DNA of 64,000 nt from a virus. Its lineage: Duplodnaviria; Heunggongvirae; Uroviricota; Caudoviricetes. Numbering within the stretch: position 1 is the first letter of the stretch; each line of letters opens with the position of its first letter. Where the stretch lies: IMG/VR virus record IMGVR_UViG_2563366911_000001, one strand, 5' to 3'. A program made the position numbers and the translations under genes. Shown here in pieces: positions 3,097 through 32,089 of this stretch. The notes beneath the pieces are model-generated. The model had not been told where the DNA came from, did no database searches, and was given only the letters and a program-made list of their open reading frames with translations.

Positions 3097-4138
3097 ATCT
3101 AACGCTCGACGAGTGACTTGTGATAGCGCCGACTCCAAGCGCGTAATCAAAGAACAATCGTTGATGCATCGCCAGCCTACCGTGCGTCTTCTCCCAATTA
3201 TCGCGGTCACGCTCAATATCACGCTGGCATGACTGGCACAGAGGAATTGCGTAAATGTCATGCGCGCATAATCGACTATGACGAACGATATAAGGCGTAA
3301 TGTGAGCGCCAGCTCCCGCCGCTCCACACCCACAGCATGGACGGGAAGCAACAAAGTCCATGTACTCAGGTAATTTTAGCGATTGCAGTTTTGGTATTTT
3401 GAAATGCGCCATGCCAGGGTCGGAGTCAACATCCACAGGGCATACTTTTTCACGCATCGGCGCGGCGCGTTCTTCCATCATCTGAACATATGCTGTAGCG
3501 CGATCGTCATACGGGCGAATATCCGCCTCTTTCAGAGGTCCGCTATCCTGCGTTGCGGCTTTCATCTTATTTATTGATATACGGCAAACTTCTTCCGGCA
3601 TCAGGTGCATCATGTTGCGCATGAAAGCCCACCAGCACAGTTCCTGAATACTTAAATCATGGCCATCTGAAAGCCCCATTTCCTGACGGGCGACATCCAG
3701 TATCCAGTTAACGCGATTATTATGCAGCGTTTCTTTCAGCTCATTAAAACCACGCATCCGGTAATGGTTATCGTGATGCCAGCACAACAACACCGCGCTA
3801 TTGTCTCGTTCTGCGTGGACAATATGGTTGTCACACCAGCTACGATCTGCGGCCTGGCATTGCCCCTCTTTCCTGCGCAACCACGCCACCAGCGCGTCAA
3901 TTCCACCAATACGGCGAAACAGTTCATCGCTGTTAAAAAACGGCTGCAACGCCTCATTTGTTGCCATAGTTTGCTCGGAAACAACGAGGCCGTCGTCCAT
4001 GTGCTCGATTAACTCACGCGGCACCGGCTCCATAATAAATTTACGGCCAGCCTCCACCAGCTTTCTGACTTCCTGATCCACTTTGAATGTGGCGACGCCA
4101 AGCTCTTTTTGTACAAAGGGAGTAATTACGGCTTTCAC
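3095..4138 (-). CDS. Hypothetical protein, 347 aa, Cys/His-rich C-terminus (possible Zn-binding or HNH-like)
   Basis: Long ORF; C-terminal CCGCG...H...C...C-x2-C cluster. Confidence 0.7.
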
Positions 4139-4165
4139 ATCACACCTTTCATCACTGATTGGGCT

Positions 4166-4366
4166 TTATCTGCTGCCCGGCATTCTCTGTTTAAGCACAA
4201 CCATTTCCTGACGGCATAACACAGCAATAGCAGTCCTGGCTCCAATTTGCTTACCAACCAGGTATTGCTTTACCTCGCGGCGACTCACGCCATCAAGAAG
4301 CATCTTTAACGCTTCACGGGACAATTTGTTGTATTTGCGTGCCATTAATCTACTCCGCAGAACCAT
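4166..4366 (-). CDS. Small basic hypothetical protein (about 59-66 aa)
   Basis: Short ORF immediately downstream of doc; start uncertain. Confidence 0.4.
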
Positions 4367-4730
4367 ACAATCTACGCAACGTGTCGGCGACAGAAGATAC
4401 AGATATCTCGCCAGTCGCAGCGCCTACAGTAAGGTCTGCCAGTTCAGGTGAATCAAATACCTGCACCCCGTTACGGCGTAGAAATAGCAGCGCGCTGTTT
4501 AGCGCGGTACGCTTATTGGCATCATTGAATATATGCCCTCTCGCTGTAGCCACCAGGTAGGTGGCGGAGACTTCGAAAAGGTCGGTGATCTCTTCGTAGG
4601 CAACTCTGGCCTGAACTCTCCCGATAATGGCCTCTGCCCTGCCCGGATCTGACATGCCAGGCAGGCCGCCGTAGCGGCTTATATTCGCATCATGAAGCGC
4701 AATAAGTTCTTCCGGTGATATATGCCTCAT
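4350..4730 (-). CDS. doc: Doc toxin (Fic/Doc family), 126 aa
   Basis: [26 protein letters not shown]-terminus and [11 protein letters not shown] Fic-type motif; start overlaps phd stop. Confidence 0.9.
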
Positions 4731-4957
4731 TATCGGTTAACCAGTTCCTTGTTGGTGGAGTCCAGGGTGTCAAACAGGGATGCAAATTCAGCATCCAGCG
4801 CCGCTTTTTTGTAGGCTTCGAAAGTAGCCTTGCTGACAATTACTGCTGGCTCACGGCCTCTGCGGGTGATTTCAACCTCTTCCCCGGCTTCAACATTGTT
4901 GAGCACTTCAGAAAGGTTGCCGCGCGCGGTACGGAAGTTAATGGATTGCATAAACAC
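4730..4957 (-). CDS. phd: Phd antitoxin (probable start at 4951, 73 aa)
   Basis: [32 protein letters not shown]; translationally coupled to doc. Confidence 0.9.
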
Positions 4958-5023
4958 CTCGTGTACTCGTTATGTGTACACAATTATAAACCTCACAGGC
5001 ATAAAGCACCAGCCCTTTGCAGC

Positions 5024-5413
5024 TTAAATAACCGGACAATCATCAAACTCCCCACTTCGGGCATCATTGATGACATGAGTGATCACACCAAAAACAGCAT
5101 TACTGCCCGTGCATCCATCGTCATCTACTGGTAACGCCTCTTTCTTCCCGGTGCTTAAATCCTCCAGGTGCTGGCGCGGATACTTCCTGTATCTCTTTAT
5201 GCGATATTCACCCTCCATAGCGCACACAAGCAGCGAACCATCAACTGGAGTAAGCGAAGAATCAACCACCAGCAAAGCACCCTGCAATATTCCCTCACGG
5301 TGATGGCTATCAGCTGCCCGCATGAAGTAGGTTGCTGATGGATGTCTAATTATCTGCTGATCAAGAGAAATTCGGCTTTCAACATAATCCGCCGCAGGAG
5401 AAGGGAAACCCAT
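5024..5413 (-). CDS. humD: UmuD'-like S24 peptidase (HumD-like), 129 aa
   Basis: GFPSPAADYVE...HPSATYFMRA matches UmuD without its N-terminal 20 residues; LexA box upstream. Confidence 0.85.
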   Translation of the reverse strand: MGFPSPAADYVESRISLDQQIIRHPSATYFMRAADSHHREGILQGALLVVDSSLTPVDGSLLVCAMEGEYRIKRYRKYPRQHLEDLSTGKKEALPVDDDGCTGSNAVFGVITHVINDARSGEFDDCPVI

Positions 5414-5431
5414 AGCGTTTTACCTCAAAAA

Positions 5432-5451
5432 TACTGTTTATCTGTACAGTA
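5432..5451. promoter_or_regulatory. LexA (SOS) box TACTGT-N8-ACAGTA in the divergent promoter region
   Basis: tactgtttatctgtacagta: CTGT-N8-ACAG core, 19 bp upstream of humD start and 137 bp upstream of the 5588 gene. Confidence 0.7.
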
Positions 5452-5587
5452 TACATTAAAGAAGCACCTTTGGTGCAAACGCGTTATGTACATCAACCAC
5501 CGCTGATGATTTTTGTGCGCTTTGCTACTATTCATCACCGCGGGATCAGCGTAACCTCGTTGCCAATCAGTTAATAAGGAATTAGCT

Positions 5588-6172
5588 ATGCCTAATCGCA
5601 TTCCTCTCGATCCTGTATTGCCCAAAAATTTTGACTGCACTCCTAACGAGAAACGCTCTAAAGCTCAGCTGGACGCCTGGTGGGACCATCCATATGGGGT
5701 TACACAACCTGACGGGAAAATTGTAGTTTATTGTCTGAATGGTGGGGCGTGGGACCGTCCATCCGTGCTTTGTTTGGCAGATAACTATGATGAAGCCTGT
5801 GAACTTGCCGAAAGACAGCAGGCAAGCTGGGTAAAAACACGGTCTGAACCGACATTCATGTTTTCAAAAGAACCGCCATTTATACTGGCGAGGATGCCGC
5901 AGCGACCGGATCATCAACAAGAAATTGTTGCTGAATTTTCCTCAAGGGATGAGATGAATCTCTTCTCATTAAAGCAGGAAGAAAGGGATCGCGTCGAAGT
6001 GTCTCCAACTCTCGACCACAACCGGATGAACCTGGCCCAGCTCGCCTGGTACAGCAAAGAATTAGAGATGTCTATTTCCCGGCTTGAAAACGAAAAAGCC
6101 GCTATCCAAGTCCAGCACGAAGTAGTTCTGAACCGGATTAGAGAAATGCAAAACGATAACAGGGGATTTTGA
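5588..6172 (+). CDS. Hypothetical protein, 194 aa
   Basis: ORF divergent from humD; coiled-coil-like C-terminus; no domain recognised. Confidence 0.6.
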   Translation: MPNRIPLDPVLPKNFDCTPNEKRSKAQLDAWWDHPYGVTQPDGKIVVYCLNGGAWDRPSVLCLADNYDEACELAERQQASWVKTRSEPTFMFSKEPPFILARMPQRPDHQQEIVAEFSSRDEMNLFSLKQEERDRVEVSPTLDHNRMNLAQLAWYSKELEMSISRLENEKAAIQVQHEVVLNRIREMQNDNRGF

Positions 6173-6529
6173 ATGGCTAAAATCGAGTACCATCGCGATC
6201 GCGGTAATTACCTGGAAATATACGATCATGAATCTCTTAACGATATCAACGATGCGTTATATGAATACTGTGAAAAAACGAGCATCACAGATGCACCTGA
6301 TGCATTTGTCGAGCTGCCGGTATATCTCCGCGACATCTATGCAATACGAACACCGCCCGTATCGGTGATTCACATTGGCTATGTCCGCCTGTCCATCAAA
6401 GAAGATGAAGATCGTTATATCGTGCGCCACTATACATTGGACAGAAAAGAACTTCCTAATGAATGGAACATGAGTAATTTCTACAACGGTGAATATGGCT
6501 TAAAATCCGCTAATAATTTACGGTCATAA
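6173..6529 (+). CDS. Hypothetical protein, 118 aa, adjacent to the 194-aa gene
   Basis: ATG 1 nt after preceding stop; no domain recognised. Confidence 0.6.
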   Translation: MAKIEYHRDRGNYLEIYDHESLNDINDALYEYCEKTSITDAPDAFVELPVYLRDIYAIRTPPVSVIHIGYVRLSIKEDEDRYIVRHYTLDRKELPNEWNMSNFYNGEYGLKSANNLRS

Positions 6530-6655
6530 TCTATACAGGCATGTATAACAACAATGAGCCTATTAGCTGTCAACAACGTTATTTTCTCAAATAAGAAAAA
6601 GCAGAAAACAAATTGTTTAAGGTCACAAATTGTGGCCTTGATGGAGGAGGGAGGC

Positions 6656-6870
6656 TTATTGGCTATGGCTAAAAATCAAATTAGACACTTCATGTTGCTG
6701 TAGCTCATCAAGATCCGAGGCCACAAAACCTTTTCCGAAAAACTTCACAAGTAACTCACTAGCCGCATCATTGTCACCTATTACACGAAAGTCATACGGC
6801 AACGTCGCAAGCTGACGATGTAATCCTGCTGAGAAAGTCGAATCTAACAGCGCCCAGAATTCCCACCGCA
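6656..6870 (-). pseudogene. Possible C-terminal gene remnant (about 70 codons, no in-frame start)
   Basis: Frame reads ...ILRWEFWALLDSTFSAGLHRQLATLPYDFRVIGDNDAASELLVKFFGKGFVASDLDELQQHEVSNLIFSHSQ-stop, preceded by an in-frame stop and AT-rich non-coding DNA. Confidence 0.3.
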
Positions 6871-7391
6871 GGATAATACTCGCCTCTTAATACTGTATAT
6901 ATGTTGTTACGATATGTTTTTCTGTCTCTAAAAAAAGATGTTAATAGAATGCTAACCATTGAAGGGGATAAAAATATACAATTCCAACAAACGTTATTTT
7001 TAACAATTTTTTTCTTTGCGTTGACTTTCCCGGACACCTTGTCTGACCGAAGGTGCGCGAAAGCCACTTTTTCCTTCCTGAGTTATCCACAAAGTTATGC
7101 ACTTGCAAGAGGGCCATTTTCTACATATTGTGGTGGCTAACAGATGAAATGAATGTAGATTAATTGAAGATAAGGAGAAAATTTGAGATGCAATCATGAC
7201 GTTAATAGATAGGGTCTGCATTACAGACCCCACCCGCATCAAGGAATTAGCCGTTCCCTGATGTTTTTCCGAAAACATGTGCCGTAAGCTCACGTTAACG
7301 ACTTTCATTCACCGAATCCAACTATATAGGGGTTGGGTTTCTACGTCAACGTGAGCAAGTGCACCTTTACATTTGACAAGGAACCACCTGA

Positions 7392-7529
7392 ATGAACGCT
7401 TTTTTTCAGTTCCTGAGTGCATTTTTAGATGCGCCTATTATTAGCCAGATTCTGGCTATTATCCTCATCATCGTTTTGATTTTGCTTTTAAGGTCAGTAA
7501 AAGATGGAATTATGCACTGGCTTACTTAA
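7392..7529 (+). CDS. Small hydrophobic peptide, 45 aa, single predicted TM helix
   Basis: ATG 9 nt after AAGGA; MNAFFQFLSAFLDAPIISQILAIILIIVLILLLRSVKDGIMHWLT; followed by palindrome aatgtttcagtgaaacatt; below the ORF-track length cut-off. Confidence 0.4.
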   Translation: MNAFFQFLSAFLDAPIISQILAIILIIVLILLLRSVKDGIMHWLT

Positions 7530-7604
7530 TGTTTCAGTGAAACATTAAAATCTCCTTGATGTGGAAACAATCATTTTCTGTATGTGCTGGTGGGCACCTG
7601 TAGT

Positions 7605-7967
7605 TCAGCTTTCGTTGACATTTAACTTCGTCTTTGCTTTCTCCACCAGCAACTTCCAGATGCCTATTTCATTAGCAGCCGCCTTGATGGCGGCATAAAA
7701 AGCATCTTGCTGATCGTAACGCTGGATCTGTTTTTTCAGTTTTGCCTCCACCAATTTAATTTCATTACGTGCTTTCTGAAGCCGCATCACCGCCCGGTTA
7801 CGTCTGTTCTTGTATAGCGTGTTAATCTCTGACAATTGTTTTAATTTGCCAGCCTGACTGCGGATTATCGCCTCCCTGGCTTCTGCCGTGCGTCTCATCT
7901 GATCTCTTAAGAGTTCACCGTTTTCGATAATTCTTTCAAGGTGTTTGATGTGATCTGCAACTCTCAT
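7605..7967 (-). CDS. Hypothetical coiled-coil protein, 120 aa
   Basis: ORF, last gene of the long minus-strand block. Confidence 0.6.
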   Translation of the reverse strand: MRVADHIKHLERIIENGELLRDQMRRTAEAREAIIRSQAGKLKQLSEINTLYKNRRNRAVMRLQKARNEIKLVEAKLKKQIQRYDQQDAFYAAIKAAANEIGIWKLLVEKAKTKLNVNES

Positions 7968-31941: not shown

Positions 31942-32089
31942 AAACTGGAAGCTCGTAACGCACTTCGGAGTTGCCACTTAGGCGCATGGTCAACCTGGCA
32001 ACTCGGTGGTTTGTCTGGGAGGACTAGGCCCAGCCATGCTTACCGCCGCGCCTGTCGCGGCTAACAGCTAAATCGCGCTATAAATCACG

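Follow-up and report, generated by a model that had tools for sequence, protein, structure and literature searches.

The window analysed here, a stretch of 64,000 nucleotides (nt) from IMG/VR virus record IMGVR_UViG_2563366911_000001, belongs to a P1-like phage-plasmid of the P7/SJ46 type and carries, at positions 5432–6529, a strong LexA operator (SOS box) followed by the plus-strand genes lxr and upf93.6. The operator lies in the 174-bp gap between lxr and the divergent gene humD, and sequence comparisons indicate that it very probably controls humD; SOS control of the lxr-upf93.6 pair is, on the same comparisons, rather doubtful. The region as a whole is best read as a humD operator next to an independently transcribed lxr/upf93.6 cassette that encodes accessory proteins, a reading to which a probability of roughly 0.55 is assigned. 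The box would be the operator of a leftward promoter whose -10 element it overlaps, and host LexA would keep the UmuD'-like protein HumD off until DNA is damaged. The phd-doc genes downstream would retain their own autoregulated promoter. To the right, lxr and the P7-specific upf93.6 would sit in a variable cassette, translated back to back and probably served by a separate weak promoter nearer to lxr, so that they would probably not, or only marginally, be controlled by LexA.

The regulatory observation itself adds nothing to the annotations of P1 and P7, in which a LexA site between humD and lxr has been recorded since 2004. New here are the association of the box with its neighbours over 151 loci, the promoter geometry, the domain architecture and spread of Lxr, and the finding that the two-gene pair is not obligate. 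The features that bear on these points are as follows, with protein lengths in amino acids (aa).

5024 to 5413, minus strand: humD, encoding a UmuD'-like protein of 129 aa (Pfam Peptidase_S24, E 6.7e-9; humD at the matching place in P1, P7 and SJ46)
5432 to 5451, no strand assigned: LexA operator (SOS box) TACTGTTTATCTGTACAGTA (pattern search, matrix score, LexA protein_bind feature of P1 and P7, conservation among P1-like elements)
5448 to 5478, minus strand: predicted leftward sigma-70 promoter of humD, with -35 TTGCAC (5478–5473), a 19-nt spacer and -10 TATACT (5453–5448), from a hexamer scan
5503 to 5531, plus strand: weak, speculative candidate promoter of lxr, CTGATG-17-TACTAT, with its -10 at 5526–5531, the best plus-strand hexamer match
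5588 to 6172, plus strand: lxr (upf94.2 of P7), 194 aa (PHROG 6164, E 2e-135 over residues 1–194; identity to the P1 and P7 proteins)
6173 to 6529, plus strand: upf93.6 of P7, 118 aa (PHROG 5797, E 9e-77), its start abutting the lxr stop codon

Strength of the LexA operator

The box TACTGTTTATCTGTACAGTA has its CTGT-N8-ACAG core at 5434–5449 and agrees with the consensus TACTGTATATATATACAGTA at 17 of 20 positions, with both arms (TACTGT and ACAGTA) perfect. The humD start codon is 19 nt away on one side and the lxr ATG 136 nt away on the other, and the spacer of the box differs at three nt from that of the P1 and P7 box. Scored with a LexA matrix of 20 positions, which was built from Escherichia coli operators and yields approximate scores, the box reaches 21.4 bits (training operators, 11.9–25.6 bits), compared with 10.6 bits for the runner-up in the window and a maximum of 19.3 bits over 100 shuffles. 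Two CTGT-N8-ACAG sequences are seen in the 64-kb window against 0.59 expected; the second, at 32052–32067 (CTGTCGCGGCTAACAG), has a GC-rich spacer, falls outside the twelve best LexA-matrix sites and is probably a chance match. An earlier reading of this DNA made from the letters alone (the sequence-only reading) had called a perfect LexA box here, which is confirmed by the pattern count and by a matrix score above all 100 shuffles; its coordinates and sequence for the box and its 174-bp gap between humD and the plus-strand genes are also correct on re-reading. By these sequence measures, the box is a genuine, strong LexA-type operator.

The box tracks with the leftward gene

Loci with an Lxr-domain gene were tabulated from phage records, public assemblies, representative genomes and IMG/VR (151 in total), and a strong box was defined as one of at least 15 bits within 400 nt upstream of that gene. 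Such a box is present at 61 of the 151 loci, abutted by a leftward humD in 60 of them and by a leftward gene of 84 aa in the last (L090). Full-length lxr genes, which encode a C-terminal helix, have no box where such a leftward gene is missing (0 of 11 loci), even though four of these loci, L091, L148 and L151 among them, retain the lxr-upf93.6 pair; short Lxr homologues likewise show no strong box (0 of 79). In the phages D6, RCS47 and PhiR41_1, lxr is missing, whereas humD, the box and the ~45 bp beyond it, which form the predicted humD promoter block, are kept; homology with the window breaks at ~5478. In L023, a Salmonella element, lxr has no box of its own; 1.8 kb away, a homologous box and leader stand in front of an 88-aa gene. 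Because the box always abuts the leftward gene and persists in phages without lxr, it appears to belong to that gene; it behaves, in these alignments, like one component of a portable cassette ('SOS promoter, operator and leader') that would travel with whatever gene is transcribed leftward.

The 84–88-aa genes form a family (MG..NY.I.YR...GGGYWLG..FEF.LE.PTSLS); in each of two divergent P1-like elements, such a gene immediately follows a perfect LexA box:

L023, 6050 to 6316, minus strand: 84–88-aa gene, box at 6334–6349
L090, 3018 to 3272, minus strand: 84–88-aa gene, box at 3295–3310

The leader of these genes resembles the humD leader, and the gene, which is absent from the window, looks like a putative second SOS-controlled cargo gene on the same promoter cassette. 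LexA-box matches also occur near homologues of the N-terminal domain of Lxr (Lxr-N): that in L037/L038 lies within a coding region, has a GC-rich spacer and is probably due to chance, and others are present in L058 and L088.

The main alternative is a shared, bidirectional SOS operator, at which one LexA dimer bound at 5432–5451 would repress the humD promoter together with a divergent promoter of lxr-upf93.6, leading to joint induction by DNA damage. This arrangement is possible, though distinctly less probable than control of humD with lxr transcribed independently. It agrees with the location of the box in the sole intergenic region that separates the two divergent units, with its presence upstream of lxr at 58 of 58 humD-linked full-length loci as well as at L090, where the left-hand gene differs, and with the 2004 curation of P1, in which the site is annotated as regulating lxr and humD. 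It accords poorly with the lxr lineages that lack a leftward SOS gene and are never boxed, the pair-keeping loci included, and with the phages in which lxr is replaced while the box and humD promoter remain.

Promoters on either side of the box

Promoters were sought with a crude hexamer scan of our own, and scores were compared with those of shuffled sequence. The best minus-strand pair, TTGCAC-19-TATACT, has a -10 that overlaps the LexA box and a score not above shuffled sequence; the same block is kept as TTCACA-18-TATACT in D6 and RCS47, and also in PhiR41_1. The best plus-strand pair, CTGATG-17-TACTAT, scores 8.75 (shuffled mean 8.1, 95th percentile 11.6) and is conserved in P1, P7 and L025. 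LexA would not be expected to occlude this rightward candidate, because its -10 lies ~75 nt beyond the box. The only plus-strand pair that overlaps the box, TTACCT-19-TACAGT, is poor, which, together with the distances of the lxr ATG and of the best rightward candidate from the box, counts against a shared operator. A built-in promoter scan returned no site in the 174-bp intergenic region. The predicted geometry favours leftward control of humD, in a suggestive manner that falls short of proof.

The P1 record places a predicted PhumD inside lxr, ~480 nt from humD (L002 3892–3918, equivalent to window ~5891–5917); the box-overlapping TATACT (5453–5448) is the more plausible candidate for the humD promoter. 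A P1 late promoter dependent on Lpa was also considered upstream of lxr/humD, where one 7/9 match to the '-22 box' of LPhot occurs just upstream of the humD -10; this match was rejected, because roughly one would arise by chance and P1 does not retain it.

Several points weigh against the favoured reading. None of the promoter candidates on either strand beats shuffled sequence, a result with which a rightward promoter overlapping the box is compatible; both the promoter positions and the lack of LexA control of lxr are predictions. The perfect box in L090 is again directly upstream of an lxr-upf93.6 pair, as would fit a functional link between box and lxr. E. coli offers precedents for one LexA box serving two divergent genes, as at uvrA-ssb. 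The protein-binding role proposed below for Lxr, for its part, is drawn solely from acidity, genomic context and an absent enzyme signature. The sequence-only reading had the box shared by both sides, as the P1 annotators wrote in 2004: its strong operator in the divergent gap stands, but the comparisons and promoter geometry tie that operator to the leftward gene.

The same reading had also predicted co-expression of the plus-strand pair with humD and with the addiction module phd-doc, which lies further to the left:

4350 to 4730, minus strand: doc toxin, 126 aa (Pfam Fic/DOC, E 3e-9; P1 and P7 annotation)
4730 to 4951, minus strand: phd antitoxin, 73 aa from its ATG (Pfam PhdYeFM_antitox, E 3e-13; the program-made list of open reading frames (ORFs) begins it at GTG 4957)

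This prediction is weakened by the annotated promoter of phd-doc itself, Pphd, which is sited between humD and phd in P1 and P7, where phd is annotated as 222 nt. Co-induction with humD would need read-through, which may be possible, as the scan returned no terminator-like site in the humD-phd interval.

The element and its earlier annotation

The 1.7 kb of this region are 98% identical to Salmonella phage SJ46, P7 and several records named P1, and the first 1.1 kb are 95.5% identical to reference P1. At matching positions, both records annotate humD. That of P7 (AF503408) also carries upf94.2, upf93.6 and a LexA protein-binding site labelled 'regulation of humD expression'; that of P1 (AF234172) marks a 'LexA binding site in the regulatory region of lxr and humD' and describes lxr as a 'LexA regulated function'. 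This name probably reflects the proximity of the gene to the box alone. The 194-aa protein of the window shares 93% identity with P1 Lxr (over 189 aa) and 99% with P7 Upf94.2, the 118-aa protein shares 98% with P7 Upf93.6 over 118 aa, and the divergent arrangement of lxr and humD is the same in P1, P7 and SJ46. The reality and conservation of the two ORFs, on which the sequence-only reading had hung its proposal, are settled by these P1/P7 homologues and by the PHROG families: both are real, conserved genes. In PLSDB, the region has matches in 235 plasmids; in 125 the match spans both genes, and one plasmid is 100% identical.

Similarity to P1 stops within the 3' end of lxr, after which P1 has hot on the opposite strand. 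The hot-lxr stretch is listed as a variable, low-GC region of P1-like elements (PMC9603915; PMC6906374). In the window, low GC (0.35–0.43) is seen at 6450–7400, downstream of upf93.6, where there are short ORFs only; an inverted repeat at ~6620–6640, followed by a T-run on the minus strand, resembles by eye a terminator for transcription arriving from the right. No RNA family was found in an Rfam scan of 4800–7700.

No functional study of lxr, upf94.2 or upf93.6 was found in the literature searched, which did not include the primary P1 papers; nor did that literature yield measurements of LexA binding or RecA-dependent derepression at this box. In a genome-wide knock-down screen by CRISPR interference, P1 lxr was non-essential for lytic growth (PMC10695390).

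The Lxr protein and its family

Lxr can be divided into two parts, both within lxr on the plus strand:

5588 to 5977, plus strand: Lxr-N, conserved domain, residues 1 to ~130
6032 to 6163, plus strand: single long helix, residues 149–192

An AlphaFold2 model of the protein has a predicted local distance difference test score (pLDDT) of 90.4, and its structure finds no match in BFVD with E < 0.001. Searches of Pfam, NCBIfam, PADLOC and PDB sequences with Lxr and Upf93.6 gave nothing above threshold, in keeping with the statement of the sequence-only reading that neither protein has a recognizable motif; sub-threshold noise comprised PKK, DUF7588 and an oligosaccharyltransferase. PHROGs matches for both are to families of unknown function only, and the defence-protein models of PADLOC (2023, E up to 1) match neither.

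The family itself is large. A homology search returned 124 proteins, of which full-length relatives (189–199 aa) come from Escherichia, Salmonella and Enterobacter, and short relatives (130–145 aa), matching residues 1 to ~125 only at 50–60% identity, from Klebsiella, Pseudomonas, Xanthomonas, Burkholderia, Bradyrhizobium and Mesorhizobium. When 1.84 billion cluster representatives (50% identity) were searched with a profile, 472 members were recovered at E<=1e-3 and 248 at E<=1e-10, and 923 plasmids in PLSDB encode a relative, 564 of them typed as conjugative. The family is thus spread over plasmids, conjugative regions resembling integrative and conjugative elements (ICEs) and phage-plasmids of Alpha-, Beta- and Gammaproteobacteria. 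The C-terminal helix (~45 residues, coiled-coil) is found only in P1-type Lxr and is missing from most family members; it probably dimerizes the P1-type protein.

The settings of Lxr-N genes are diverse. Across 80 loci, recurrent neighbours, identified from sequence without a Pfam scan, include a VirD4/TraG-like coupling protein, WGR, DUF736, an SNase-like nuclease and an ArdC-like protein, and no constant partner gene is present. Klebsiella phage-plasmids carry Lxr-N between gp32/RecA/exonuclease genes and a HEPN-Toprim gene, and Bradyrhizobium between repABC and trb genes; Lxr-N is also found within arrays of small ORFs and in large IncHI/IncF plasmids. In Pseudomonas/Agrobacterium RepA_C plasmids (L003–L006, ~4040–7040), Lxr-N is the middle gene of an operon, preceded by a 66-aa gene and followed by a serine resolvase gene that begins within the Lxr-N stop codon region, the two overlapping; a VbhA-Fic toxin-antitoxin pair is oriented divergently to this operon, with RepA alongside. 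This layout echoes that of lxr divergent from humD-phd-doc, because Doc belongs to the Fic/DOC family.

Many longer Lxr-N members (P0140, P0146, P0148, P0154 and P0171) have an N-terminal helical extension of ~45 aa (L..LKR.AK......H..ALE..A...GF.SW..L), which shows a sub-threshold match to the N-terminus of Pfam Glyoxalase_8, and one member has a PaaA2 'stability determinant' motif. Neither the N- nor the C-terminal extensions of Lxr-N members match a solid Pfam family or offer a functional lead. The 66-aa gene upstream of Lxr-N in the Pseudomonas plasmids was compared by eye with the ~60-aa N-terminal extension of fused homologues, and no resemblance was visible.

The composition of the protein bears on what it may do. 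The isoelectric point (pI) of Lxr is 5.2, with a median of 5.0 for 100 short homologues, and Lxr-N has a pI of 5.15 and a net charge of -4, calculated over the whole domain. Conservation is highest at positions that are mainly Pro, Trp, Gly, Leu and Ala; few of them are polar (N20, R23, D33, C49, D56, R57, R85 and R106). Lxr is proposed to consist of an acidic α/β domain (~125 aa), which would be encoded elsewhere as a stand-alone gene, joined to the presumed dimerizing helix of the P1 type, and to act as a non-essential accessory factor that would bind a protein, of the host or of the element, with a part in DNA transactions or in establishing the element. The protein would be an interaction module of mobile elements, dimerized in the P1 lineage, and we do not think that it is an enzyme or a sequence-specific DNA binder.

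It is unlikely that Lxr is a sequence-specific DNA-binding regulator, in which an AP2/integrase-like domain of three strands plus a helix would be dimerized by the C-terminal coiled coil. NCBI gives the product name 'DNA-binding protein', conserved Trp and Arg residues lie on or near the sheet, and a dimerizing helix is typical of regulators; the name is backed by no model found, however, since no helix-turn-helix, ribbon-helix-helix or other DNA-binding model of Pfam or NCBIfam matches, while both the protein and its family are acidic (pI ~5), the whole-domain charge reveals no basic domain, and most family members have no such helix. A broader proposal is that Lxr-N represents a large uncharacterized family with a fold absent from the PDB, which would target either a defence system or the host's machinery for DNA damage or replication when the element is established or stressed. 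The P1 lineage would then have gained the helix and a place beside SOS-controlled humD, where Lxr might work with HumD/pol V or RecA, and Upf93.6 could be a lineage-specific partner. This is speculative, and long odds would be given against it.

Upf93.6 and its association with lxr

The genes lxr and upf93.6 are 0 nt apart, the TGA at 6170–6172 being followed by the ATG at 6173, rather than separated by 1 nt as the sequence-only reading had it. The Shine-Dalgarno sequence of upf93.6 (AGGGGA, 6161–6166) is within the 3' end of lxr. The AlphaFold2 model of Upf93.6 has a pLDDT of 72, the protein has a pI of 5.0, and homologues are confined to Enterobacterales.

In elements of the P7/SJ46 type and in the divergent elements L090, L091, L148 and L151, upf93.6 follows lxr, and in these four the pairing is retained at 55–70% protein identity. 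Full-length lxr occurs without upf93.6 at 30 loci, P1 included, and a Salmonella plasmid has an upf93.6 homologue without lxr, located after unrelated 81-aa and 320-aa genes near ccdAB. A further homologue stands alone in Yersinia enterocolitica (L092:3501–3848) among Mrr_cat, PLDc_2 and HEPN_RiboL-PSP genes, a setting that resembles a defence island. The 320-aa and 81-aa genes in Salmonella and a 194-aa gene near the Yersinia homologue were considered as possible Lxr relatives, and are not. Because each gene occurs without the other, lxr-upf93.6 is, on this distribution among sequenced loci, a frequent but dispensable association and not an obligate module; the 'two-gene module' of the sequence-only reading does not hold for P1, Salmonella or Yersinia.

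The distribution also argues against a mutually dependent toxin-antitoxin, abortive-infection or defence/anti-defence pair, which we regard as very unlikely. Such a pair would suit the abutting stop and start codons with a separate Shine-Dalgarno sequence for the second gene, the survival of the pairing in divergent elements, the adjacent phd-doc addiction module, the neighbours of the Yersinia homologue and the PaaA2 motif in one Lxr-N homologue. It is at odds with the loci at which either gene is alone, with the absence of a fixed partner for short Lxr-N homologues, with the lack of a toxin or antitoxin match to either protein in Pfam or PADLOC, and with the knock-down of lxr, which gave no lytic-growth phenotype (PMC10695390). 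Upf93.6 would instead be a separate small acidic accessory protein that rides in the same cassette, and our best guess is that both Lxr and Upf93.6 are non-essential protein-binding accessory factors of mobile elements.

Significance

The naming of lxr and the apparently portable SOS cassette matter for the use of P1-like phage-plasmids as models of SOS-linked mutagenesis or antibiotic-induced expression. Lxr is not an oddity of P1 and belongs to a widespread protein family of plasmids, ICEs and phage-plasmids. It is a reasonable target for structural and interaction studies, because this widespread family has no assigned fold or function in the searches made here (no fold match in BFVD; no family match in Pfam, NCBIfam, PADLOC or PDB sequences).

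Comparison with known systems

The closest relatives of the region are P1 (AF234172) and P7 (AF503408), which share its gene order, orientation and LexA site position, with 95–98% identity in DNA and 93–99% in protein. P1 differs in having hot on the other strand after lxr, where the window has upf93.6, and P7 differs in a copy of IS903 ~260 bp downstream of upf93.6, of which the window has none.

As an S24-family gene directly behind a CTGT-N8-ACAG box that overlaps its predicted promoter, humD resembles the umuD-type genes of mobile elements and their host counterpart, the operon features of E. coli umuDC, plasmid mucAB and N15 gp26 being well established. Unlike umuDC-type operons, humD reportedly comes without a umuC partner on the element, and its product is reported to correspond to UmuD' that is already 'processed'.

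With uvrA-ssb of E. coli, humD/lxr shares a single SOS box in a divergent intergenic region, and this system is the model behind the shared-box reading. At uvrA-ssb, LexA-sensitive promoters have been mapped on both sides; at humD/lxr, by contrast, overlap with the box is plausible for the leftward promoter alone, and in the locus comparisons it is the leftward gene with which the box is associated.

The Lxr family resembles PsiB, ArdA and KlcA/ArdB, the establishment or anti-defence proteins of plasmid leading regions, in being small, acidic, dispensable and common on conjugative plasmids and in ICE-like regions, where its members are found near ArdC-like and other transfer-associated genes.

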